DNA of 64,000 nt, taken from an uncultured Verrucomicrobiota bacterium. Its GTDB lineage: Bacteria > Verrucomicrobiota > Verrucomicrobiia > Limisphaerales > JAEYXS01. Of this stretch, positions 2,340-55,264 are shown in pieces. The stretch lies in the NCBI GenBank assembly GCA_964589735.1, contig CAZPUL010000015.1, positions 11,165-75,164 of the forward strand. The letters are read 5' to 3'. The translations under genes were made by a program, and so were the position numbers. The stretch's first letter is position 1. Each line of letters opens with the position of its first letter. The notes under the pieces are model-generated. The model did no database searches and had not been told where the DNA came from. It saw nothing but the letters and a program-made list of their open reading frames with translations.

Positions 2340-3215
2340 TCACTTCAACCAGCCGAGTGAGCGGAGGAACAGCTCGCTTTGCACGAGGGCATCGTGGAAG
2401 AGCGCGCCGTCGAACATCAGGTAGCCGTGCACGCCGCCTTCGTTCACCACAAGTTCCGAGCGGTTGCCCGACTTCTGCATGGCATCATGAAATTTCTGCG
2501 CGCCTTTGAAGGGTGTCGTGGTGTCGCCGGTGCCATGCAGGGTGAGCGTGGGCGGCAGGCCGGGCTTCACCTGGTGCGCCGGTGAGAGTTCCTGCCAGCG
2601 ATTGCCAAGCAGAGCGTTGCCATAGCCTTCCTTCGAGGTGTCGATCACGGGGTAATAGAGGACCATCGCGTTCGGCACACTGGAGATCTTCACGTCATCC
2701 GAGGCTTCATCCAAGCCATCGAACAGGGCGGTGCTGGCGGCGACATGACCGCCGGCGGAACCGCCATTCACGGCGATGCGTTGTGGATCGATGCCCAATT
2801 CTTTCGCATGAGCACGCAGGTAGCGCATCGCCGAGCGGCCATCCTTCACGCAGTCGAAAACGGTATTGGTGCCCTTGGTGGTGACGAGGCGGTATTCCAG
2901 GCTGATGCCGACCATGCCAAGTTCAGCGAAGTGGGCAGCGAAGGGGTACATGCGCCGGGGTTCACCGCCGCGCCAGCCGCCCCCGTGGATCGTGAGGAAG
3001 CAGGGACGTTGATCGCCGGGCTTATGGCCCTTGGGATCGAAGATGTGGAGATGCAGCTCGCGGCCGTCGATCTGTTTGTAAACGACCTTGCGCGTGGGCT
3101 CGACCTTCGCGGCGATCTGAGCGGCGGGATCAAGCGGCTTGGGCGCGGCGGCTTGCAGGGGAGCACTGGTGGACAGGGTCAGGGTGAGCAAGCAGAGCAA
3201 GGCGAGAGGGCGCAT
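2340..3215 (-). CDS. Secreted alpha/beta hydrolase (esterase/lipase, fold-3-like)
   Basis: HGGGW oxyanion motif and GGSAGG (GxSxG) nucleophile elbow. Start chosen at the ATG at 3215, which gives a signal peptide MRPLALLCLLTLTLSTSAPLQA. The ORF runs on to 3338 but that part overlaps the neighbouring gene. Confidence 0.8.
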   Translation of the reverse strand: MRPLALLCLLTLTLSTSAPLQAAAPKPLDPAAQIAAKVEPTRKVVYKQIDGRELHLHIFDPKGHKPGDQRPCFLTIHGGGWRGGEPRRMYPFAAHFAELGMVGISLEYRLVTTKGTNTVFDCVKDGRSAMRYLRAHAKELGIDPQRIAVNGGSAGGHVAASTALFDGLDEASDDVKISSVPNAMVLYYPVIDTSKEGYGNALLGNRWQELSPAHQVKPGLPPTLTLHGTGDTTTPFKGAQKFHDAMQKSGNRSELVVNEGGVHGYLMFDGALFHDALVQSELFLRSLGWLK

Positions 3216-3294
3216 GGGTGGAATAGAACCTGAGCCCGCGCAGGAACGGAAGAAATTTTCTGACAGATGGGCTTTTGTGGTGTCTAATCTCCGC

Positions 3295-3996
3295 ATGGGA
3301 ACACAGGCACCATTGTTGCGGCTGGAAGGATTGTCCAAACAGTATCCTTCTGCGGAAGGGGCGGCGCCGCTCTATATCTTGAAAGAGGTCACGCTGGACA
3401 TCGCGGCAGGCGAGGCGGTGGCGATCATCGGGCCCTCCGGCTCGGGCAAGAGCACGTTGCTCAATGTGCTCGGCACGCTGGACCGGCCAAGCGCGGGCAA
3501 GGTGACCTTCGGCGGGCGCGAGGTGACGCAGCTCGATGAACTGGCGCTGGCAGCGTTGCGCAATCGCGAGATCGGTTTCATTTTCCAATCCCACCATCTG
3601 CTACCGCAATGCACGGTGCTGGAGAATGTGCTGGTGCCGACCTTGGCGGAAGGCAGCCAGCGCGGGCCGGAGAAGGTGGAGCGGGCGAAGAAGTTGCTCG
3701 CACGAGTCGGTTTGGCGGAGCGGTTGAGTCATCAGCCGGGGCAGCTCTCCGGTGGCGAACGTCAGCGCGTGGCGGTGGTGCGCGCCCTGATCAATGCGCC
3801 CAAGCTGGTGCTGGCGGACGAACCTACCGGCGCGCTGGACCGAGTGTCAGCGGATACGCTCGCGCAACTGCTGGTGGAACTGAACCGGGAGGAGGGTGTG
3901 ACGCTTATCGTGGTGACACATGCGCTGGACCTGGCGAAGAAGATGGGGCGGATACTGGAATTGCAGGACGGAAAACTGGTGGAGAAAAAGGGTTAA
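3295..3996 (+). CDS. ABC transporter ATP-binding protein (LolD/MacB-type)
   Basis: Walker A GPSGSGKST, signature LSGGERQR, Walker B LVLADEPT. Start taken at MGTQAPLLRLEGLSKQY (ATG 3295). Confidence 0.9.
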   Translation: MGTQAPLLRLEGLSKQYPSAEGAAPLYILKEVTLDIAAGEAVAIIGPSGSGKSTLLNVLGTLDRPSAGKVTFGGREVTQLDELALAALRNREIGFIFQSHHLLPQCTVLENVLVPTLAEGSQRGPEKVERAKKLLARVGLAERLSHQPGQLSGGERQRVAVVRALINAPKLVLADEPTGALDRVSADTLAQLLVELNREEGVTLIVVTHALDLAKKMGRILELQDGKLVEKKG

Positions 3997-4145
3997 CCAC
4001 AGATGGACACAGATCAACACAGATGGGGAATGGGGGGAGAAGTTGGGGGAACGTCCAACGCCCAACGTTCAACGTCCAACATTCAAAGCGGTGTGCGAAT
4101 GTTTCTGCACGCTATCTGTGTCCATCTGTGTCTATCCGTGGTTAA
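3993..4145. repeat. Composite inverted-repeat element: 34-bp arms of 3 x decamer ACACAGATNN around a core of 5 x heptamer YYCAACG
   Basis: Left arm ttaaccacagatggacacagatcaacacagatgg (3993-4026) matches the reverse complement of the right arm (4112-4145), ttaaccacggatagacacagatggacacagatag, at 28 of 34 positions. Core heptamers lie at 4054-4088. The element sits between the ABC ATPase and permease genes and overlaps the ATPase TAA stop. Confidence 0.85.
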
Positions 4146-4166
4146 AAGAAATCTGGAGGTGGGCGT

Positions 4167-7100
4167 ATGATGGGGTATGGGACATTGGTGCGGCGCAGCT
4201 TGGCCTATCATTGGCGAGCGCATCTGGGCGTGCTGCTTGGGGCCATCGTCGGTAGTGCGGTGTTGATCGGCGCGCTGCTGGTCGGGGATTCCGTGCGGGC
4301 AAGCTTGAAGAAGCTCGCGCTTTTGCGGCTGGGGCAGACGGAGCAGGCGCTGGCCTCAAACGACCGGTTTTTCCGCGCGGCTTTGGCGAAGGAGATTTCC
4401 ACGGAAGTGAAGACGCCGGTGACGCCCGTGGTGCAAGTGCTGGGCACGGCGAGTGCGCGGGGTGGTGAAGGACGCGCGAACAAGGTGCAGGTGCAAGGTG
4501 TGGAGAACGGTTTCTGGGAGCTCGCGCAGCAGAAGCCATCGTTCGCGACGATCCCGGATGGTTCAGTAGTGTTGAATGAGGGGCTCGCGCGGCAGTTGGG
4601 TGTGAAGGAGAAAGAGGACGTGGTGTTCCGGGTGCCGAAACCTTCGGCGCTTTCGCGCGATGCGCCACTCGCTTCGCAGGAAGATGCTTCGGCGGCGTTG
4701 CGCGTGACGGTGCATGCGGTCGTGAGCGATGAGGAATTCGGGCGGTTCGGGCTGCAAGCGAGCCAGGTGCCGCCCTTCAATGCGTTCATGCCGCTCGCGT
4801 GGCTTCAGCAGAAGCTGGACATCGCGGGCAAGGCGAACCTGTTGCTGGTGGGCAAGGGAACCGATGAAGCGGCGCTCACGGCGTCATTGAAAAAGCACTG
4901 GCAGATCGCCGATGCGCAGATCGAGTTGCGTGACCTGAAGGAAGTGAAGGCGATCGAGGTGCGCACGCCACGCGTGTTCCTTGATCCGCCGATGGTGGAG
5001 GCCTCCCAGAAAGCGGGCGCGAATGGGCAGAAGATCCTCACGTACTTCGCGAATGACCTCCGGTTGGGGACGAACACGGTACCGTACTCCATGGTGACGG
5101 CAGCGGGTGAACCGTGGGTGCCTGCGGGTCTCAAGGACGACGAGATCGTGCTGGGCGAATGGGCGGCGGAGGATTTGAGTGCGAAGGCGGGGGATACGGT
5201 GACGATGACGTATTACTTCGTGGGCATCGGGCGCAAGCTGGAGGAACGCACGAACACGTTCCGCGTGCATTCCATCGTGCCACTGAGCGGCATCTACGCG
5301 GACCGCAGTCTGATGCCGGATTTTCCGGGCATGACGGATGCGGAGAACTGCGGTGACTGGGACACAGGCTTTCCGATCAACATGGAGGCCATCACGCCGA
5401 AGGATGAAAAGTATTGGGATGACCACAAGGGCACACCGAAGGCGTTCATCAGCCTCGCGGCGGGACAGAAGCTTTGGGCCAACCGTTTCGGTGATCTGAC
5501 GGCGGTGCGGTATGACAGCGCGAATGTGACGACGAACCAGCTCGCGCAGGCCATCCAGCAACAGATGGACCCGGCGAGCGTGAGTCTGAGCTTCCTGCCC
5601 GTGCGGGAACAGGCGCTCAAGGCGGTGGCGCAATCACAAGATTTCGGCGGGCTCTTCATCGGGTTCAGCTTCTTCCTCATCGTGGCGGCGCTGTTGTTGA
5701 TGGCGTTGCTGTTTCAACTGGGTGTGGAACAACGGGCGCGCGAGGTGGGCACGTTGCTGGCGTTCGGGTTCACGCCCAAGCAGGTACGGAATCTGTTGCT
5801 GGGCGAGGGCAGTGCCTTGGCCTTGATCGGCGGGGTGCTTGGCGCGGTCGGTGGTATCTGGTATGCGCAGGGGATGCTCTACGGGCTGGCGAATCTGTGG
5901 CGCGATGCGGTGGGCACGTCGTCGCTGACGTTCCATGCGGAGCCGAAGACGTTGGTCATCGGCACCATCGCGAGTTTTTTTGTGGCGCTCATCACCATCT
6001 GGCTGGCGGTGCGCAAGCAGGTGCAACGGCCCGCGCGGGAACTGCTGGCAGAAGGCGCGGAGGAACGGCGCAGCGTGCTGGAAGGCGCGGCGAAGAAGGG
6101 CAAGGCGGGGATCATCGCGGCGACATGCATCGTGCTGGGCGTGGCCATGGTGGGCTGGGCGAAGTTCGGCGGGGAAGGCAGTGCGGCGGGCCTGTTCTTC
6201 GGCGCGGGCGGGTTGTTCCTCATCGGCGGACTCGCGGCGAGCGCGGCGTGGTTGAACAAATTGCGCGATGCGGGACTGCGTATGACGGCGGACCAGCTCG
6301 CGGCGCATTTTCATCTGAACGGCCTGGGCATCCGCAACGCAGTGCGGCGGCGCAAGCGCAGCCTGGCGACGATCAGTCTGCTGGCGTGCGGCAGCTTCCT
6401 CGTGGTGGCGGTGGGCGCGAACAAGCTGGATGCGACAGCGAATGCGACGAAGCGTTCGGCGGGCACGGGCGGGTTTGCATTCATCGGTGATACGACGCTG
6501 GCGGTGGTGCAGGACCTGAATTTGAAGGAAGGACGCGAGTTCTTCGGGCTGGATGACAAGAAACTGGCGGGCGTGTCCATCGTGCCATTCCGCGTGAAGG
6601 ATGGCGATGATGCGAGCTGCCTGAATCTGAACCGCGCGCAGACGCCACGCCTGCTGGGCGTGAATCCGCAGCTCTTGCAGGAGCGCGAGGCGTTCACATT
6701 TGCGAAGGTGATGAGCGGGGTGGACAAGACGGCGCCGTGGAATGCTTTGAAGAATGCAGCGGGCAGCGATGAAGTGGCGGCCATCGGTGATTTCAACTCC
6801 ATCATGTGGGCGATGGGCAAGAAGGTGGGGGATACGCTGGATTTCCGCGATGAACAGGGGCGGACGTTCAAGGTGCGCATCGTGGGTGCGGTGGCGAACT
6901 CCATCTTGCAAGGGAACCTGCTCATCGATGAAGCGGCGCTGGTGGCGAAGTATCCTTCGGAGGCCGGTTACCGCATGTTCCTGATCGATGCGCCGGCGGA
7001 ACGCGCCACTGAAGTCGCCGCGACACTGACGAAAGCCTTGCAGAACGAGGGCATGGAACTGACGCCCACGGCTCAGCGATTGAACGCTTATAATGCGGTG

Positions 7101-7487
7101 CAGAACACGTATCTCAGCACGTTTCAGATCTTGGGCGGGCTTGGCCTGTTGCTCGGCAGCCTCGGCTTGGGCGTGGTGGTGCTGCGCAATGTGCTGGAGC
7201 GGCGCGGTGAACTGGCGCTGATGCAGGCGGTCGGGTTCCGCGCGCAGACCTTGAAGTGGCTGGTGGTGAGCGAGCATGGCGTGTTGTTGCTCGTGGGCCT
7301 GACGGTGGGGGTCGTGTCGGCGCTGGTCGCGGTGTTGCCCGCGTTGCTGTCGCCGGGAGCGGAGGTGCCGTATGCGTCGCTGGCGGTGACGCTCGGGGCG
7401 GTGCTCATCAGTGGTGGGGTGTGGACGCTGGTCGCCGCCTCATTTGCGTTGCGGGGTCAGTTGATGGATGGGCTGCGGAGTGAATAA
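4167..7487 (+). CDS. ABC transporter permease with duplicated FtsX domains (MacB/YbbP-like)
   Basis: 1106 aa. There are two blocks of four TM helices, each after a large extracytoplasmic domain, and it follows the ABC ATPase. The 547-aa antisense ORF was rejected. Confidence 0.85.
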   Translation: MMGYGTLVRRSLAYHWRAHLGVLLGAIVGSAVLIGALLVGDSVRASLKKLALLRLGQTEQALASNDRFFRAALAKEISTEVKTPVTPVVQVLGTASARGGEGRANKVQVQGVENGFWELAQQKPSFATIPDGSVVLNEGLARQLGVKEKEDVVFRVPKPSALSRDAPLASQEDASAALRVTVHAVVSDEEFGRFGLQASQVPPFNAFMPLAWLQQKLDIAGKANLLLVGKGTDEAALTASLKKHWQIADAQIELRDLKEVKAIEVRTPRVFLDPPMVEASQKAGANGQKILTYFANDLRLGTNTVPYSMVTAAGEPWVPAGLKDDEIVLGEWAAEDLSAKAGDTVTMTYYFVGIGRKLEERTNTFRVHSIVPLSGIYADRSLMPDFPGMTDAENCGDWDTGFPINMEAITPKDEKYWDDHKGTPKAFISLAAGQKLWANRFGDLTAVRYDSANVTTNQLAQAIQQQMDPASVSLSFLPVREQALKAVAQSQDFGGLFIGFSFFLIVAALLLMALLFQLGVEQRAREVGTLLAFGFTPKQVRNLLLGEGSALALIGGVLGAVGGIWYAQGMLYGLANLWRDAVGTSSLTFHAEPKTLVIGTIASFFVALITIWLAVRKQVQRPARELLAEGAEERRSVLEGAAKKGKAGIIAATCIVLGVAMVGWAKFGGEGSAAGLFFGAGGLFLIGGLAASAAWLNKLRDAGLRMTADQLAAHFHLNGLGIRNAVRRRKRSLATISLLACGSFLVVAVGANKLDATANATKRSAGTGGFAFIGDTTLAVVQDLNLKEGREFFGLDDKKLAGVSIVPFRVKDGDDASCLNLNRAQTPRLLGVNPQLLQEREAFTFAKVMSGVDKTAPWNALKNAAGSDEVAAIGDFNSIMWAMGKKVGDTLDFRDEQGRTFKVRIVGAVANSILQGNLLIDEAALVAKYPSEAGYRMFLIDAPAERATEVAATLTKALQNEGMELTPTAQRLNAYNAVQNTYLSTFQILGGLGLLLGSLGLGVVVLRNVLERRGELALMQAVGFRAQTLKWLVVSEHGVLLLVGLTVGVVSALVAVLPALLSPGAEVPYASLAVTLGAVLISGGVWTLVAASFALRGQLMDGLRSE

Positions 7488-7522
7488 AGGAGAAGATGGC
7501 GGCTACGGATTTGGGCAGGGCA

Positions 7523-7547
7523 GTGCGGATTGAGGAGCAATCCGCAC
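7523..7547 (+). terminator. Hairpin downstream of the permease gene (possible terminator)
   Basis: gtgcggattg-aggag-caatccgcac forms a perfect 10-bp stem 36 nt after the stop. The downstream tract agtttgaatt is only weakly T-rich. Confidence 0.35.
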
Positions 7548-8212
7548 AGTTTGAATTCACACTCCTTGATGAACGGGGCGGACCATCGGCGGGTAGCGCG
7601 CGGTCCACGAAGTTCGGTTTCGCACGGCCAAGGTCACACCGGGTGGTTACGCGGGCATGGCGGGCAGGCAACGATTGGGTGAAAGGGGGATAAACCACAG
7701 CCCCGACAAGTTGTCGGGGTGAAAATACTCAGAATACACAGAAAGCGAGAGGGAAAATGGCCGAAGGAGTCGATCCCTGAAATTTAGTCTCCATATAGCG
7801 CATATAGCTCATATAGGCATCACGCATCTCAGATTTCTAGGGCATTGTGGGCACGTCATGAAGAAGCTCAAAGCTCAAAGGAATCGTTAAAAGGGTTAAA
7901 GAGGTTGAATGGTGAACCGAGACGGGAAAGCCCTTGTGGGCGGGAAAAAACGAAATTTTGTCTCCATGGAGCTCACCGGGCGCACCGAAGCCTCACGGGT
8001 TCGGAGAAATCATGGCAGATTGGCGGTCAGAAACGGGAAGGCCCAGTGCGGTCCTGACCGGCAAATCAGGAAAACATAGTGCGGACCAAGAGCAATGAAG
8101 GTGAAGGGGTATGAAAGGTGAATCGTCTAATAAGGTGGCAGCGGATGCTTGGCCTATCCCTTTGACAGGGATGGGGCGGGGTGGTTTAACAGTTGTATCC
8201 CTCGGTAAACGC

Positions 8213-10864
8213 ATGTTTTCGGTGAAAAACAGTCTGTTTCAATGCGGTGTGACGGCAGCGGCGCTGGTGGTCTCAGCCCAAGCGGGTTGGGCGGCGAGCA
8301 AGAGCGAGCCTGTGTTCGAGCGGGATATCCGGCCCATCCTCAAGACGCATTGTTTTCATTGCCACGGCGAAGAAGAGAAACCGAAGGCAGGATTGGACGT
8401 GCGGTTGCGGCGGTTCATCGCGCAGGGCAGCAAGGACGGTCCGGTGCTGGTGCCGGGCAAGCGCAAGGAGAGCGCGCTGTATCTGGCGGTGCAGTCTGGC
8501 GAGATGCCGGAGGGCGAGAAGAAGTTGACACCGGAACAGGTGGAACTCATCGGCCGCTGGATCGACAAAGGGGCGAAGACCTTGCGGCCGGAACCGGAGA
8601 AGCTGGAGGGTTACTATTTCACGGAAGAGGAGCGGCAGCACTGGGCGTTTCAGCCATTGACGCAGCCTGGCGTACCGAAAGTTCAAAGCTCAAAGTTCAA
8701 GATCAACAATCCGATCGATGCGTTCATCGCGGTGAAGTTGAAGGAGAACAAGCTGACGTTTTCGCCGGAGGCGGACAAGGCGACGTTGATCCGTCGGGCG
8801 ACGTTTGATCTCACGGGCCTGCCACCCACACCGGCGGAAGTGGATGCCTTCCTCGCGGATAGTTCGCCGGATGCGTATGAGAAGCTGATCGACCGGTTGC
8901 TGGCATCGCCGCATTACGGGGAGCGTTGGGGACGGCACTGGCTGGACGTGGCGGGTTATGCGGATTCCGAGGGCATCACCGCTTCGGATGCAGTGCGCAA
9001 GCATGCATGGAAGTATCGGGATTACGTCATCAAGGCGTTCAACGAGGACAAGCCGTTCAACGAATTCATCATCGAACAACTGGCGGGCGATGAACTGGTG
9101 AAGCAGCCGTACAAGAATCTGCCACCCGCGGAGCAGGAGAAGCTGGTCGCGACGGGTTATCTGCGCATGGCGCCGGACCCCACGGGTGCAGGTGCGCCGG
9201 ATCAGAAGCTCGCGCGGAATCAGGTGGTGACGGATACGGTGAAGATCGTCTCCACTTCGCTGCTGGGCATGACGGTCGGGTGCGCGGAGTGTCATGATCA
9301 CCGGCACGACCCGATCCCGCAGGCGGATTTCTACCGGTTGCGTGCGGTGTTCGAGCCCGCGTATGACACGAAGAACTGGAAGGTGCCGAACGCGCGTCTT
9401 ATCTCTCTGCTCACGGATGAACAACGGGCGGCGGGCGATAAAGTGGAAGTGGAAGCGAAGAAGCTGGATGCCGAACGGCTCAAGAAACAGGAAGAGTTCA
9501 TCAGCGAAATCCTGGAGCTGGAACTGGCGAAGCGGGAGGAGGCTTTGCGCGAGCCCTTGCGCACGGCGTATCGGACCGCTGCGGCCAAGCGCACGCCGGA
9601 GCAGGTGAAACTGCTGAAGGGACATCCCACGGTGATGAACCTCTCGCCGGGTTCGCTCTATCTCTACAAGCAGAAGATGGCGGATGACCTGCAAAAGATC
9701 GCGGATGAAGCCGCGAAGGTGCGCGCGCAGAAGCCGAAGGAAGAATTTGTGAGCGCCTTGACCGAGCCCGGCGGCAAGGTGCCGGTGACGCAGATCTTTC
9801 ATCGCGGCGATCCGGATCAACCGAAGGCCGCGGTGAAACCGGGTGACCTGACGATCCTGGCCTCGTTGCGCAAAGTGGATCTGGCGGAAGATGACGAGGC
9901 GCTACCGACCTCAGGCCGTCGGCTGGCGCTCGCGAAAGAATTGACGGATGGAAAGCATCCACTGACGACGCGCGTGCTGGTGAACCGCATCTGGTTGCAT
10001 CACTTCGGGCGTGGGCTGGTGAATACGCCGGGTGATTTCGGCACGCATGGCGACAAGCCTAGTCATCCAGAATTGCTGGATTGGTTGTCATCGGAGTTCG
10101 TGGCGCAAGGCTGGAGTGCGAAGAAGCTGCACAAGCTCATCATGACCTCCACAGCGTATCGGCAGGAGTCAACGCGCGATCCGAAGAAGGAGCGCATCGA
10201 TGTGGAGAACCGCCTGCTTTGGCGCATGAACGTGCGGCGGCTGGAGGCGGAGGTCATCCGTGATTCATTGCTGGCGGTGAGCGGCAAATTGAATGCGAAG
10301 CTCTTCGGTGAACCGGTGCCGATCATGGAGGATGAAGCGGGTCAAGTGGTCGTCGGCATCGATACGAATGACACGGCGGGGCGGCCTTCGGGCAAGTTCA
10401 TCCCGCTGAATGGCGAGGAGTTTCGTCGCAGCCTGTATATCCAGATGCGGCGCTCGAAGCCGGTGGGTTTGCTGGAGACGTTCGACATCCCGGCGATGGA
10501 ACCGAACTGCACGATCCGCAATGCGTCCACGGTCGCGCCGCAATCACTGGCGCTGATGAACGGGGAGTTCGCGCTGGAGCAGACGAAGTATTTCGCCGAG
10601 CGCGTGGAGAAGGCGGCGGACAAGGACGCGCAAGTGGAGCTGGCGTGGAAGATCGCCTTTGGCGCGCCGCCGAGCATGGCGGAGGTGATGCAGGCGAAGG
10701 CGTTCCTGGAAAAACAGACGAAACATTTTGCGGCGAATCCGCCCGCACAACCCGCCCCGGCCAAAGGCAAGACGGCACCGCCTGCCCCCACGGCGGAACA
10801 TCTGGCGCTGGAGAGCCTCTGCCAGGTGTTGATCAGTGCGAACCGGTTTTTGTATGTGGATTGA
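8213..10864 (+). CDS. PSCyt1/PSCyt2/PSD1 protein (planctomycete cytochrome c + DUF1549 + DUF1553)
   Basis: CFHCHGEEEKPKAGLDVR heme-like motif, NPIDAFI (DUF1549), and a C-terminal ...CQVLISANRFLYVD typical of DUF1553. Start at ATG 8213 gives a signal peptide. Confidence 0.85.
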   Translation: MFSVKNSLFQCGVTAAALVVSAQAGWAASKSEPVFERDIRPILKTHCFHCHGEEEKPKAGLDVRLRRFIAQGSKDGPVLVPGKRKESALYLAVQSGEMPEGEKKLTPEQVELIGRWIDKGAKTLRPEPEKLEGYYFTEEERQHWAFQPLTQPGVPKVQSSKFKINNPIDAFIAVKLKENKLTFSPEADKATLIRRATFDLTGLPPTPAEVDAFLADSSPDAYEKLIDRLLASPHYGERWGRHWLDVAGYADSEGITASDAVRKHAWKYRDYVIKAFNEDKPFNEFIIEQLAGDELVKQPYKNLPPAEQEKLVATGYLRMAPDPTGAGAPDQKLARNQVVTDTVKIVSTSLLGMTVGCAECHDHRHDPIPQADFYRLRAVFEPAYDTKNWKVPNARLISLLTDEQRAAGDKVEVEAKKLDAERLKKQEEFISEILELELAKREEALREPLRTAYRTAAAKRTPEQVKLLKGHPTVMNLSPGSLYLYKQKMADDLQKIADEAAKVRAQKPKEEFVSALTEPGGKVPVTQIFHRGDPDQPKAAVKPGDLTILASLRKVDLAEDDEALPTSGRRLALAKELTDGKHPLTTRVLVNRIWLHHFGRGLVNTPGDFGTHGDKPSHPELLDWLSSEFVAQGWSAKKLHKLIMTSTAYRQESTRDPKKERIDVENRLLWRMNVRRLEAEVIRDSLLAVSGKLNAKLFGEPVPIMEDEAGQVVVGIDTNDTAGRPSGKFIPLNGEEFRRSLYIQMRRSKPVGLLETFDIPAMEPNCTIRNASTVAPQSLALMNGEFALEQTKYFAERVEKAADKDAQVELAWKIAFGAPPSMAEVMQAKAFLEKQTKHFAANPPAQPAPAKGKTAPPAPTAEHLALESLCQVLISANRFLYVD

Positions 10865-12311: not shown

Positions 12312-12887
12312 TTACTGCACCACGAGGGCGCAGTCACCGTGGGGTTCACGGGTGAGGCATTCGCGGAGGTAGTCCACGATCTGGTCGTTCAAGGCCTGGC
12401 AACGGCCGCTCCAGCGGCGCGCACCGACCAATTGCTTCACGCAACTGCGGAGGCCGGTGAAACAGATCACGTTCGGGGCTTTCACCAACTGTTGCTCCAT
12501 CTCCTTGCGCAGGCAGGGGAAGAAGTTGAGTTCGAAACCCTTGCCGGAATCGAAGGCGAGCTTCCGCAGATCGCTGCGCACGATGTTGCCTTGCTTGCCA
12601 TTATTGTTGGTGGCGGCGGCCTTTATGGGCTCGTGATTCACTTCCAGGCCGAAGCTCTGCAGCACGTGCTCCAGCGCCTCGGAGAATTCGTTCAGCGAGA
12701 CGTATTCGCGCCCCTGCTCGTGCTTGAAATAATGCAGCACGGCAGCAGCGGCGTGGCGGATGAGGTCGGGATCGAGGTTGTCGGCGGCATCGCCGATGAG
12801 TTCCACCGTCACCTGCTCCACGGAGCAGGGGATGGAGTCCCCGTTGGCGAGCTTAAAGACCAGGCAGTCGGAACGTAGCTGTATCAT
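12312..12887 (-). CDS. Hypothetical protein co-transcribed with nrdR
   Basis: ATG at 12887 is preceded by GGAGGT (ctggaggtgcgacATG). It overlaps the nrdR 3' end by 35 nt. No family recognised. Confidence 0.6.
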   Translation of the reverse strand: MIQLRSDCLVFKLANGDSIPCSVEQVTVELIGDAADNLDPDLIRHAAAAVLHYFKHEQGREYVSLNEFSEALEHVLQSFGLEVNHEPIKAAATNNNGKQGNIVRSDLRKLAFDSGKGFELNFFPCLRKEMEQQLVKAPNVICFTGLRSCVKQLVGARRWSGRCQALNDQIVDYLRECLTREPHGDCALVVQ

Positions 12888-51544: not shown

Positions 51545-53587
51545 ATGTTCGTTTATCCGCGTCAGTTTGAGGTGATTGTGGTGGGGTCCGGTCATGCGGG
51601 CGTTGAGGCTGCTTTGGCGGCGGCGCGCATGGGGGCCAGCACGCTCATGCTCACGATCAATGCCGATACCATCGGCCAGATGTCTTGCAACCCGGCCATC
51701 GGCGGCTTGGCCAAGGGACATCTCACGCGCGAGATCGATGCCCTCGGCGGCGAGATGGGCAAGTGCACGGACATGACGGGCCTGCAGTTCCGCATGCTCA
51801 ATACCAAGAAGGGCCCGTCCGTGTGGGCGCCCCGGGCGCAGTGCGATAAGAAGGCCTACCAGTTCCGCATGAAGTGGATCTGCGAACGCCAGGAGAATCT
51901 GGACATCAAGCAAGGCCAGGCCGCGAAGCTCCTTTTCCGCGACGGCGAGGTGTATGGCGTGGAGACCACCCTCGGTGTGCAGTATCTCGGCAAGACGGTG
52001 GTGATCACCACGGGCACGTTCCTCCGCGGCCTCATGCACATCGGCAGCACCCAGCAGCAGGGCGGTCGCGCCGGTGAAGCCGCCGCCATGGGCCTGTCCG
52101 GTTCGCTCAAGGAACTCGGGGTGGAACTCGGTCGGCTGAAGACCGGCACTCCTCCGCGGCTTCTGAGTCGCACGATAGATTTCAGCAAGACCGAGAAGCA
52201 GGACGGTGATGAGCCGGTGCCGTACTTCACCTATTGGAAAGACGATTTGTTCCACGTGGAACATTCCGGCATCAACCCGCGCGACATCGGCCACTCGAAT
52301 GGCAAGTATCCGCCCGGCTCCATCCTCGACCGCATCAACGGTCAGATGAACTGTTTCATCACCTACACCTCGGACAAAACCGCCGAGCTGATCCGCGCGA
52401 ATCTCCACAAGTCCCCGATGTATTCCGGCGTGATCGAGGGCGTCGGCCCGCGCTATTGCCCGTCCATCGAGGATAAGATTGTGCGGTTCGCGGAGAAGGA
52501 GCGGCACCAGATTTTCCTCGAGCCCGAGGGCATTTCCACGGACGAAATCTACGTGAACGGCTTCTCCACCTGCCTGCCTTTCGAGGTGCAAGTGGAGATG
52601 GTGAAGTCCATCATCGGCTGCGAAAACGCCGAGATCCTCCGCCCCGCCTACGCGGTGGAATACGACTTTTCCTTCCCCACGCAACTGCATCCTTCGCTCG
52701 AAACGAAAGTCTGCCGCAACCTGTTCCTCGCGGGCCAGATCAATGGCACGTCCGGTTACGAAGAGGCTGGGGCGCAAGGACTTATGGCGGGTATCAATGC
52801 CGCGCGACGGGTCCAGAATAAGGAACCCATCGTGCTCCGCCGGGACCAGGCTTACATCGGTGTGTTGATCGATGATCTCGTCACGAAGGGCACCACGGAG
52901 CCGTATCGGATGTTCACCTCGCGCGCGGAGTATCGACTGCTCCTGCGCCAGGATAACTGCGATGCGCGCCTGTCCCAGCTCGGCTACGACATCGGCCTCC
53001 TGCCGAAGCGCAACTACGATAAGTTCGTGGCCAAGCAGCAGACCATCGACGAGGAGATGGCGCGCTTGAAGTCCGTGCGCGTCGGCACGCTCACGCTTTC
53101 CCAGATGCTCCTGCGGCCGGAGGTGACCTATAAGGATTTGCCGACCGAGAATCAGAACGGGACCTTGAGCGGAGAGATCATCGAGCAGATCGATATCCTC
53201 CATAAGTACTCCGGCTACATCGAGCGCCAGGAGGAAGAGGTCGCCAAGTTCCGCACCATGGAGGATAAGCAGATTCCGCCTTGGCTGGACTACGCGAAGA
53301 TTCCCAGCCTCCGCACTGAGGCGCGTCAGAAGCTGACGAAAATCCAGCCGGCCACCCTCGGCCAAGCACTCCGCATCTCGGGCATCTCGCCGGCGGATGT
53401 CACCCTCATCATGGTCGCCATGAAGCGTGGGAACTCGGGCGGCGAAACTGGGAATCCTGTCCCCCTCCCACCAACTGCACCCGTTAAGGTCCCGACCGCT
53501 GCCTGTGGGGATGACGCGGATGTGTGCGGGGCGGCCGAGCACTTCGAGGGGCCGAGCGGTCACAACTCCTGTTGTGGGGATCTGTGA
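51545..53587 (+). CDS. mnmG: tRNA uridine 5-carboxymethylaminomethyl modification enzyme MnmG (GidA)
   Basis: VIVVGSGHAGVEAALAAARMG FAD motif, GVIEGVGPRYCPSIEDK and MFTSRAEYRLLLRQDN. Start at MFVYPRQFE. It carries an internal insertion and a 51-aa C-terminal extension. Confidence 0.95.
   Translation: MFVYPRQFEVIVVGSGHAGVEAALAAARMGASTLMLTINADTIGQMSCNPAIGGLAKGHLTREIDALGGEMGKCTDMTGLQFRMLNTKKGPSVWAPRAQCDKKAYQFRMKWICERQENLDIKQGQAAKLLFRDGEVYGVETTLGVQYLGKTVVITTGTFLRGLMHIGSTQQQGGRAGEAAAMGLSGSLKELGVELGRLKTGTPPRLLSRTIDFSKTEKQDGDEPVPYFTYWKDDLFHVEHSGINPRDIGHSNGKYPPGSILDRINGQMNCFITYTSDKTAELIRANLHKSPMYSGVIEGVGPRYCPSIEDKIVRFAEKERHQIFLEPEGISTDEIYVNGFSTCLPFEVQVEMVKSIIGCENAEILRPAYAVEYDFSFPTQLHPSLETKVCRNLFLAGQINGTSGYEEAGAQGLMAGINAARRVQNKEPIVLRRDQAYIGVLIDDLVTKGTTEPYRMFTSRAEYRLLLRQDNCDARLSQLGYDIGLLPKRNYDKFVAKQQTIDEEMARLKSVRVGTLTLSQMLLRPEVTYKDLPTENQNGTLSGEIIEQIDILHKYSGYIERQEEEVAKFRTMEDKQIPPWLDYAKIPSLRTEARQKLTKIQPATLGQALRISGISPADVTLIMVAMKRGNSGGETGNPVPLPPTAPVKVPTAACGDDADVCGAAEHFEGPSGHNSCCGDL
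52248..52263. promoter_or_regulatory. parS-type site (perfect palindrome TGTTCCACGTGGAACA) inside mnmG
   Basis: Exact 16-bp palindrome. The half-site TGTTCCAC equals the left half of the B. subtilis parS TGTTCCACGTGAAACA. Confidence 0.7.
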
Positions 53588-53588
53588 T

Positions 53589-53604
53589 TGTTCCACGTGG
53601 AACT
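53589..53604. promoter_or_regulatory. parS-type site (TGTTCCACGTGGAACT, 15/16)
   Basis: The core GTTCCACGTGGAAC is perfect. It starts 2 nt after the mnmG stop. Confidence 0.65.
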
Positions 53605-53645
53605 TTTTTGATTTACCACGGAGGCATGGGGATAGGGGAGTTCTA

Positions 53646-53675
53646 GCCACGGATTAAACACGGATCACACGGATT
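53646..53675. repeat. ACACGGAT decamer-type array (3 units)
   Basis: gccacggattaaacacggatcacacggatt. This is the same family as the arms of the 3993-4145 element. Confidence 0.7.
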
Positions 53676-53690
53676 GGGGAAGTGAGGGTT

Positions 53691-53770
53691 GGCCCGCTAA
53701 AGACACGAAAACGGGGATAAAGGAAAACGGAGGCCCGTGTGGTTCAGGACATGGGTAACACTCGGAAGAG
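53691..53770. repeat. Left copy of an ~80-bp inverted duplication flanking the parS region
   Basis: ggcccgctaaagacacgaaaacggggataaaggaaaacggaggcccgtgtggttcaggacatgggtaacact... matches the reverse complement of 54550-54629 at roughly 9 of 10 positions with one indel. Confidence 0.85.
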
Positions 53771-53805
53771 GGACCGTTTCATAGTATAGTTAGCACCCGC
53801 TAGAT

Positions 53806-53821
53806 TGTTCCACGTGGAACA
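53806..53821. promoter_or_regulatory. parS-type site (perfect palindrome)
   Basis: TGTTCCACGTGGAACA, extended to the 18-bp palindrome ttgttccacgtggaacaa. Confidence 0.7.
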
Positions 53822-53860
53822 ACGCAGATCATGAGGACGGTCGTTTAGCCCACGGATGCT

Positions 53861-54008
53861 GGGGACCGTCTGTCCTCAGCGGGCCGGGGTCCGGTAACGT
53901 AGCGCATACCCGAGGAACCGAGTCGTAAGCGCCAGACTTCACCTTGCTTTGATTCCCTTGTTCACCCTTGGCTTCGACGCGGCGCGCTGAGGACAGCGCC
54001 GCCCTACC
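53861..54008. repeat. Degenerate copy of the GGTAGGG...CCCTACC inverted-repeat element
   Basis: Left arm ggggaccgtctgtcctcagcgggccg and right arm ggcgcgctgaggacagcgccgccctacc. The right-arm context ggcttcgac...gctgaggacag...ccctacc matches 32298-32335. Confidence 0.7.
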
Positions 54009-54137
54009 ACCCTCGGCCATTGCCCCCTGATTGATTAATCCGTCTCCAACCAAGGGATTATGAGTCCCCTACTCAATCCCTTGTCTATCCACTACTCACT
54101 TGATAGACCAGAGGATTGAAAATTCTCATACTGTCAA

Positions 54138-54506
54138 ATGTTCCACATGGAACATTCCAGACTTTCCGTGACATATCCCCTGCACCCCGGTCTAAGGGTT
54201 ATAGCAATTGAAAGGCTCTCAATGCGCGAACTCGCTTTACTGGACACGCTGGGCGTTTGCCTCCTTTTGCTCCTCAGCTTGGTCTTGCCCCTGATGCTGA
54301 GCTTACGCCCGCCGCAGGATGCGCAGCACAAGAAAGCGTGCTTGAAGGTAGTTTGGATTGGGCAACTTTTGGGTGCATTAGCGGGAATCGGCATTTACGC
54401 CTCGGCCACCGTGACCCCTTACGCGATGGTGTTGGGGACCCTAGGCTGCCTCATCTGCGCCCGGATACTCTCCAAAAAACTCCGCTCCGGCGAGATTAAC
54501 GGGTAA
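54138..54506 (+). CDS. Doubtful small membrane ORF between parS sites
   Basis: 122-aa ORF whose ATG lies within the parS variant. It has hydrophobic stretches, and an internal start at 54222 (MRELALL) is possible. No family recognised. Confidence 0.3.
   Translation: MFHMEHSRLSVTYPLHPGLRVIAIERLSMRELALLDTLGVCLLLLLSLVLPLMLSLRPPQDAQHKKACLKVVWIGQLLGALAGIGIYASATVTPYAMVLGTLGCLICARILSKKLRSGEING
54139..54154. promoter_or_regulatory. parS-type site variant (TGTTCCACATGGAACA)
   Basis: One central substitution (CA for CG) relative to the palindrome. Confidence 0.55.
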
Positions 54507-54519
54507 ATTGGGCCAGAAA

Positions 54520-54535
54520 TGTTCCACGTGGAACA
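54520..54535. promoter_or_regulatory. parS-type site (perfect palindrome)
   Basis: TGTTCCACGTGGAACA, 14 nt inside the right copy of the inverted duplication. Confidence 0.7.
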
Positions 54536-54549
54536 ATGGGATTATTCAA

Positions 54550-54629
54550 CCTTGGAAGTGTTACCCTTGTCCTGAACCACACGGGCCTCCGTTTCCCTTT
54601 AACCCCGCTTTTCGTGCCTTTAGCGGGCC
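54550..54629. repeat. Right (inverted) copy of the ~80-bp duplication
   Basis: The reverse complement reads ggcccgctaaaggcacgaaaagcggggttaaagggaaacggaggcccgtgtggttcaggacaagggtaacact... Confidence 0.85.
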
Positions 54630-54646
54630 AAATCCCCTTCCTCAAA

Positions 54647-55099
54647 CTACTTCACTGTCTCAAATACCCGCCGAATCGTCTCCACGCGACGACGATTGGT
54701 GCCGAGATCGGAGTAGCCCAAACGTGAGGCGGAACGTATGTGAATTACCTTCTTATTCTCATCAATCAGGAACTCCACGTCATCCACAAAGCCGAACACC
54801 AGCGTCTTGAACTCCACGTGCATGTAGACGCGGTCGTCCTTGGCTATCTTGGTGCCAGGCAGGGCATCCATCGTTAGTTTCAGACGCAGCATCGCTTCCT
54901 CCGTGGGGCAGGTGAACTTTAGGGGCTCCACCTTTTGATTCGCCCGCTCCGCCTGGCTGCAGACGCAATTCGGCGTCTCCGGGCATTCGGGCAGCTTGCC
55001 GTCCATGGGGCGAATCTTGATGGCTTTCGGTGAAACCACCACAATCACCACCCGCAAGGCGATGAACGCCAGCACAATCAACAAGAAAGTTTGCGCCAT
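54647..55099 (-). CDS. DUF1499-domain protein
   Basis: CPETPNCVCSQ and SASRLGYSDLGTNRRRVETIR motifs typical of DUF1499. Start at MAQTFLLIVLAF. Confidence 0.75.
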   Translation of the reverse strand: MAQTFLLIVLAFIALRVVIVVVSPKAIKIRPMDGKLPECPETPNCVCSQAERANQKVEPLKFTCPTEEAMLRLKLTMDALPGTKIAKDDRVYMHVEFKTLVFGFVDDVEFLIDENKKVIHIRSASRLGYSDLGTNRRRVETIRRVFETVK

Positions 55100-55264
55100 A
55101 CGTTTGTTCCCTCTCACACGGTCCAGCATACGCTGACCAACCTAGGCTTGAGATAGAGCGAGTCAAATGCCAGTTTAAGGAATAAGGAAAAATAAGTTAA
55201 GTCCTAGTTTGGGACAAACGCTCGATACACTCATAACAACCTTATAATTAATGAGTTGCGTCAA

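Follow-up and report, generated by a model that had tools for sequence, protein, structure and literature searches.

A cluster of parS-type palindromes in and behind mnmG of a Limisphaerales bacterium and its relatives

Genes and palindromes at the mnmG locus

We describe five near-identical 16-bp palindromes of the parS type at the mnmG (gidA) gene of an uncultured Limisphaerales bacterium (Verrucomicrobiota), which is represented by a metagenome-assembled genome. The stretch under study is a part of contig CAZPUL010000015.1, 64,000 nucleotides (nt) long, and is called the window below. Gene content was surveyed by Pfam and NCBIfam scans of about 45 open reading frames (ORFs), leaving out a few short ORFs. 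The genes of the window are ordinary chromosomal ones: components of a 2-oxoacid dehydrogenase, the T protein of the glycine-cleavage system, dehydroquinate synthase, an RND efflux pump and MdoG. An exact-protein look-up for DNA beyond the window yielded just an 8.4-kb Logan contig, and the gene at the right end gave no record. The features of mnmG and the five palindromes are as follows.

51545-53587, plus strand: mnmG (gidA), 680 amino acids (aa); Pfam GIDA (1.4e-159), GIDA_C_1st and SAM_GIDA_C; matches to MnmG structures in PDB down to 2e-204
52244-52342, plus strand: lineage-specific surface-loop insertion of MnmG, codons ~234-266, which hosts site 1; unaligned or gapped against the E. coli and Aquifex MnmG structures
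52248-52263, no strand: putative parS site 1, perfect, within mnmG, codons L-F-H-V-E-H
53589-53604, no strand: putative parS site 2 (TGTTCCACGTGGAACT), starting 2 nt past the mnmG stop and followed by TTTTTTG
53806-53821, no strand: putative parS site 3, perfect; its left flank is like that of the site at 12548 in the relative L003
54139-54154, no strand: putative parS site 4, with the core CACATG, 68 nt upstream of a small ORF
54520-54535, no strand: putative parS site 5, perfect, 14 nt past the stop of the small ORF

A search of the whole window for TGTTCCACGTGGAACA returned five copies with at most one mismatch, which together span 52248-54535. Three of them, starting at 52248, 53806 and 54520, are perfect; the copies at 53589 (terminal T) and 54139 (core CACATG) carry one mismatch each. 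The palindrome fits the parS consensus tGTTNCACGTGAAACa. No further match was found in the 64 kb, even with two mismatches allowed, so that the density is five sites in 2.3 kb versus none in the remaining 61.7 kb. The chance expectation for the window is 0.01 sites, and five were reached in 0 of 100 shuffles. The statement of the preliminary description that five near-identical 16-mers in 2.3 kb cannot be due to chance is thus upheld, together with their positions. Its placement of the cluster at the 3' end of mnmG was imprecise: site 1 starts at nt 704 of 2043, i.e., in the first 35% of the gene, and site 2 starts 2 nt past the stop codon.

Several minor observations concern the sites and the gene itself. 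Apart from the full sites, the window has 16 copies of the half-site GTTCCAC, a mild excess over the approximately eight occurrences expected in total, and two of these extra half-sites (51371 and 52121) lie just upstream. The only terminator-like match in a promoter and terminator search coincides with site 2, which possibly acts as a weak terminator hairpin; the same search found no sigma-70 promoters. The C-terminus of MnmG (residues ~630-680, window 53434-53584) forms a Cys-rich tail (...ACGDDADVCGAAEHFEGPSGHNSCCGDL) that is not present in the E. coli and Aquifex enzymes and has only a weak Pfam match, to ChpA-C. The tail is apparently common to a subset of relatives, in which the tblastn match extends to query residue 680. 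At least four tail-bearing relatives (L003, L004, L069 and L081; relatives are referred to by such numbers) have a parS-type site right after the stop codon, as in the window. These four are among the seven of 81 loci, the window included, with a site no more than 6 nt from the mnmG stop.

Conservation of the site within mnmG

Relatives of the locus were collected by a scan for MnmG, with one genome taken per species. This gave 80 loci with 68-98% MnmG identity, nearly all of them labelled Limisphaerales, Verrucomicrobiia or Verrucomicrobiota; with the window the set comprises 81 loci. A parS-type site with at most one mismatch is found at the same codon position of mnmG in 77 of the 81. Altogether the set contains 135 sites: 85 within mnmG, 16 at most 1.03 kb upstream of it and 34 at most 1.06 kb downstream. 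The other 1.03 Mb of the 81 loci contain none. In eight relatives a longer loop carries a second in-frame copy.

The intragenic site is conserved at the level of codons. Over 300 degenerate columns with conserved amino acids, the commonest codon has a mean identity of 0.50, versus 0.92-1.00 at codons 235-239. Just five columns reach a codon identity of 0.9 or more, and four of them fall within codons 235-239. Such freezing of synonymous codons shows that the DNA, not the protein, is under selection. Among the 54 extragenic copies, conservation stops at the edges of the 16-mer, with the flanking base being weakly A/T. The commonest changes in these copies are transitions of the central CpG, and G-to-A is the most frequent variant overall. 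In L039 and L044 the intragenic site has been lost (the peptide is now LVDPEF or LFDPEL), and each of these loci has three copies immediately downstream. It is the intragenic copy that anchors the arrangement as its conserved element, a role that the preliminary description had overlooked.

In one group of relatives the intragenic site is fixed as TGTTCCACATGGAACA, which changes Val to Met (L024, L033, L036, L045, L048, L051, L052, L054, L060, L063, L064, L066, L070, L075, L077 and L078). These relatives have no other copy within 10 kb. Either the variant still works or the main parS of these genomes lies elsewhere.

The loop that carries the site is also found outside the order. We ran phmmer against 1.84 billion cluster representatives and considered the 150 best MnmG proteins, mostly with 44-60% identity. 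The median loop length in these distant representatives is 9 residues, compared with 37 in MnmG of the window; in 14 of the 150 the loop has 30-407 residues, and most of these 14 bear the motif. Peptides that correspond to the translation of the palindrome in its three frames (FH[VM]E, STWN or CSTWN, and VPRGT) occur 40 times in 17 of the 150 best representatives. The DNA of seven motif-bearing representatives was inspected: each has two to five parS-type sites within a stop-free mnmG ORF and none elsewhere in the locus. The palindrome was confirmed at the DNA level in L082-L089. L082 has five perfect sites; L083 has four, in an MnmG of 1041 aa; L088 has five, in two reading frames; and L087 has three or four with 36-bp spacing. 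Two MnmG representatives, P0131 and P0112, have long loops with repeated VSTWK or CATWH peptides, which suggests variant palindromes (…TTTCCACGTGGAAA… and TGTGCCACGTGGCACA) in the same place.

According to the names of close homologues, the lineages with such a loop are, in addition to Limisphaerales, Verrucomicrobiales, Puniceicoccaceae / Coraliomargaritaceae and a lineage that we call Kiritimatiellia-like, a label based on only three taxon-labelled homologues (63-64% identity), two of which are Kiritimatiellia. In two of these lineages, each of the 240 close homologues has one or two motifs. In total the feature is present in 11 or more MnmG lineages whose mutual identity is below 62%. L082 (GCA_017454205.1, JAFTDK010000013.1) bears the submitter's label Bacteroidales. 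This label may be wrong, since the synteny mnmG-dnaA-dnaN-rlmL-HTH (helix-turn-helix) and MnmG similarity group L082 with the Kiritimatiellia-like L083 and L088.

Since the palindrome is read in three frames in different lineages, the loop peptide is a by-product of the palindrome. The converse explanation, that MnmG needs the peptide LFHVEH and the palindrome is incidental, could draw on the 96-100% conservation of L, F, H and E of the loop peptide in the 81 sequences. We give it practically no probability: the freezing extends to the synonymous positions, the same DNA is translated as CSTWN or VPRGT in other lineages, the peptide has been replaced in L039 and L044, MnmG of E. coli and Aquifex does not have the stretch, and extragenic copies of the palindrome exist. 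The three-frame result effectively refutes this protein-motif explanation.

The spacer downstream of mnmG

Downstream of mnmG, a spacer of 1.06 kb with sites 3-5 extends to DUF1499, the next gene (minus strand, 54647-55129). The spacer contains the following features.

54222-54506, plus strand: hydrophobic ORF of 94 aa between sites 4 and 5; the relative L002 has a 67% identical ORF
53589-53800, plus strand: local repeat module (a parS-type site, three CACGGAT motifs and a 75-nt segment); blastn copies only here and in L003
54557-54645, minus strand: partial inverted copy of the module; the arms 53689-53762 and 54557-54631 are 85-93% complementary

The spacer was previously described as mostly non-coding, repeat-rich DNA of about 1 kb. 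The length and the repeats hold; the non-coding character holds only in part, as the spacer contains the 94-aa ORF conserved in L002. This ORF has no match in Pfam or NCBIfam.

The module is approximately 175 nt long and sites 2-5 ride on it. The window has one forward copy and one partly inverted copy, and L003, the closest relative, has two direct copies and one inverted copy. In neither sequence did blastn find the module elsewhere; its copies are confined to the mnmG locus. A 714-bp segment of the window (53822-54535), which includes site 4 and the small ORF, is missing from L003 in the alignment of the two. L003 has a single site in that region, at 12548, which combines the left flank of window site 3 with the right flank of window site 5. 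Such a hybrid points to a deletion or insertion between two parS copies. In L002, site 4 has a counterpart that is a perfect 16-mer (12412), and site 5 is kept (12785). These comparisons show that the four downstream copies are a young expansion specific to this lineage, produced as modules with a parS were duplicated locally, inverted and recombined from one parS to another. L010 has a nine-site upstream array (seven sites within one mismatch) that is built of different modules; a tandem-repeat finder returned nothing on this array, the copies being interspersed modules.

The modules make it reasonable to ask whether a small mobile or selfish repeat, of the kind of miniature inverted-repeat transposable elements and with no cellular function, has left the palindromes as its ends or remnants. 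Besides the duplicated and inverted ~175-nt modules that carry the downstream copies, the analogous modules in L010 and the 714-bp indel between two copies would fit such a repeat. We nevertheless find this very unlikely. A mobile repeat would be expected at many unrelated loci, and the module is present at the mnmG locus only, in the window and L003. What different lineages share is the 16-mer alone, no site lies away from mnmG in 1.03 Mb, and the synonymous sites of the intragenic copy stay frozen while protein identity ranges over 68-98%.

Other details of the spacer are as follows. The triple CACGGAT (CCACGGATTAAACACGGATCACACGGATT) at 53640-53675 lies inside the parS module and is present in the L003 modules too; lone CACGGAT heptamers are otherwise scattered over the window. 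A 38-nt island (…GCGCGCTGAGGACAGCGCCGCCCTAC…) at 53971-54007 is 95% conserved with L002 amid spacer sequence that cannot be aligned. It has inverted arms (53870-53886 and 53980-53996), is no dispersed repeat, and its fold is not significant. The spacer has no Rfam match at the gathering score and no tRNA, and its fold has z = -0.83. Identity between L002 and the window is 98% for MnmG, 67% for the small ORF and only 52% for the DUF1499 protein; mnmG either is under unusual constraint or was exchanged between lineages.

A probable chromosomal parS cluster detached from parAB

The 16-mer is identical to the perfect parS2 and parS3 of P. aeruginosa and to parS of P. putida (PMC4368675, PMC7022226). 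In P. aeruginosa, nine of ten parS sites are intragenic (PMC4368675). Pseudomonas offers the same 16-bp palindrome, TGTTCCACGTGGAACA, in several copies that cluster over a few kb, some of them in coding sequence, as here. The earlier naming of the sites as parS-type agrees with this identity, with their tight clustering and with the DNA-level selection. The M. xanthus parS is near-identical, ending in ...AACG. We consider it very probable that the five palindromes are a chromosomal parS cluster, i.e., ParB-loading sites.

The same 16-mer was searched for in metagenomes, in an unbiased way, as tight pairs, defined as two perfect copies 14-44 nt apart, and 120 contigs were obtained. In 53 of the 120 the pair lies beside parA, which is the classic layout, and in 32 it lies beside parB; mnmG is present on 37. 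The pair is within mnmG in 15-16 contigs, always at residues ~235-261, and directly adjoins mnmG, at its 3' end or its start, in ~12 more. In most contigs where the pair abuts mnmG, which are up to 13.6 kb long, parA was not detected. Six contigs (L093, L101, L110, L113, L123 and L145) have a perfect parS-type pair right after the mnmG stop. In L101, L110, L123 and L145 the pair begins 3-5 nt past the end of the mnmG tblastn match, and L093 and L113 have a site 11 nt after the stop of the extended mnmG ORF. No parA was detected in these six, over up to 13 kb. With the exception of L145, MnmG of these contigs ends with ...LLVYFGR, ...LLMYLGR or ...LLVLLGR, endings that we take to be Bacteroidota-like.

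The metagenome contigs also bear on the possibility that the palindromes are operators of some other dimeric DNA-binding regulator of mnmG and/or the small ORF. Sites 4 and 5 bracket the small ORF (68 nt upstream and 14 nt downstream), site 2 abuts the mnmG stop, and ParB is not seen locally, all of which would suit a regulator. We rate it as quite improbable: the sequence exactly matches a proven parS, the same 16-mer occurs in pairs beside parA in 53 of the 120 contigs, up to five copies in the middle of an ORF would make no sense as operators, and L003 keeps sites without having the small ORF.

Compared with known systems, a parS cluster at this locus would be a known kind of element, while its setting, deeply conserved, embedded in mnmG and detached from parAB, is previously undescribed. 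Unlike in Pseudomonas, the anchor lies in one housekeeping gene, within a lineage-specific loop, and parAB is not within 10 kb. The B. subtilis parS in spo0J (TGTTCCACGTGAAACA) is likewise embedded in an ORF, where binding and coding constraints overlap; there, however, the host gene is parB itself and the copy is single, whereas here it is mnmG, with loops of up to 407 aa and up to five in-frame copies in relatives. The parS arrays of M. xanthus and C. glutamicum resemble the present one in having many near-identical sites in a short stretch for one partition complex, but according to the literature they adjoin parAB and are not tied to one particular ORF. In the classic mnmG(gidA)-rsmG(gidB)-parA-parB cluster, where parS sits at the promoter of parA, mnmG is a neighbour of parS as here, and this layout was recovered in the metagenome scan (e.g., in L107, L112, L149 and L156). 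In contrast to it, neither the window nor the 80 relatives have parA or parB nearby (tblastn and regular expressions) or an rsmG motif (regular expressions only), and the sites have shifted to positions within mnmG or right beside it. The searchable literature yielded no account of a parS within mnmG or of any parS in these phyla; its coverage is incomplete, which makes this weak evidence.

As previously noted, the window has no parA, parB or rsmG. For parA and parB this holds in Pfam and NCBIfam scans, motif regular expressions and tblastn with B. subtilis Soj and Spo0J; for rsmG, in Pfam scans and a motif regular expression. The Spo0J query is 100% identical to the real protein. A large protein search with it gave only Bacillus among the matches listed and did not reach Limisphaerales. 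ParABS homologues have been reported in Akkermansia, also a member of Verrucomicrobiota (PMC10197239). The window likewise has no dnaA (Pfam and NCBIfam scans, and tblastn with DnaA of L038) and no dnaN (Pfam and NCBIfam scans only).

Several points weigh against the reading of the palindromes as chromosomal parS sites near the origin. ParA and ParB were found in none of the 81 loci, the search covering 10 kb around mnmG in the 80 relatives. The core CACATG is present in site 4 and in the intragenic site of ~20 relatives, and the P. aeruginosa site with this core, parS5 (TGTTCTACATGGAACA), is the weakest binder of the ten; parS5 deviates from the perfect 16-mer by two bases, of which one is the core change. 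For Verrucomicrobiota, parS identity is read from the sequence, with binding evidence coming from outside the phylum. Finally, the window contains no dnaA, dnaN or DnaA-box cluster, and its GC skew, dominated by gene orientation, is uninformative; the window itself thus gives no sign that the locus is close to the origin. Flanking GC skew at 39 relatives' loci has no consistent sign either. The skew of about +0.2 over an FtsX/MacB-like permease gene and its neighbours (3000-9000), which flips at ~13 kb with gene orientation, is no origin signal.

In other lineages, parS-bearing mnmG is found near dnaA. In L088, dnaA starts 113 nt past the mnmG stop and is followed by dnaN; the distance from dnaA-dnaN to mnmG is 1.2 kb in L082 and 2.5 kb in L083. 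For dnaA it is 4.7 kb in L038 (a Limisphaerales relative), 1.2 kb in L205 and 5.6 kb in L162. This proximity fits an ancestral origin-proximal mnmG-rsmG-parS-parAB cluster, from which, we infer, parAB and in Limisphaerales usually also dnaA were later separated.

In enterobacteria, mnmG neighbours oriC. By analogy with gidA-oriC of E. coli, and with dnaA only 113 nt past the mnmG stop in L088, the 1-kb intergenic region could be taken for a replication origin and the palindromes for origin elements. This is highly unlikely. The region 53588-54646 has no TTATCCACA-type box within one mismatch, the 11 boxes of this type in the 64 kb being scattered (6.7 are expected), and its lowest G+C content per 100 nt is 42%, versus 38% just upstream of mnmG. 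It is, moreover, rearranged between close relatives. With no DnaA-box cluster, AT-rich element or skew switch, an oriC in the mnmG-DUF1499 spacer was rejected.

If the five palindromes are indeed parS, they would be bound by ParB encoded elsewhere in the genome. By the established ParABS mechanism, ParB dimers would load at the sites, close into a clamp dependent on cytidine triphosphate and slide onto the flanking DNA. A single partition complex would form, covering the window from roughly 52 to 55 kb; it would be moved by ParA and would recruit SMC. The link with mnmG would go back to the ancestral mnmG-rsmG-parA-parB origin cluster, as what remained of it once parAB had moved away, and the locus would belong to the origin-proximal domain.

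A bolder suggestion is that the main centromere of Verrucomicrobiota and Kiritimatiellia-like lineages is deliberately housed in the mnmG reading frame, the 9-residue surface loop having become a stop-free carrier of up to ~400 residues with one to five parS sites. We regard this as possible but rather doubtful. If it were true, a conserved ORF would fix and protect the position of the centromere independently of parAB and, in Limisphaerales, of dnaA; a tRNA-modification enzyme would have its amino-acid sequence shaped by chromosome segregation; and the loading of ParB may interact with the transcription or translation of mnmG.

A parS cluster is in itself ordinary; on the chromosome of this uncultured Limisphaerales bacterium it probably marks the centromere. 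The novelty lies in the setting: a single DNA element occupies the same mnmG codon position across at least four labelled lineages and has multiplied in frame up to five copies, drawing the loop out from 9 residues to a maximum of 407. This would be a natural case of overlapping codes, with a centromere written into a protein. It could serve as a simple marker of the segregation locus, and probably of the origin region too, in metagenome bins of the Planctomycetes-Verrucomicrobia-Chlamydiae (PVC) group, and as a testable system for asking how a gene can be transcribed while ParB clamps load on it.

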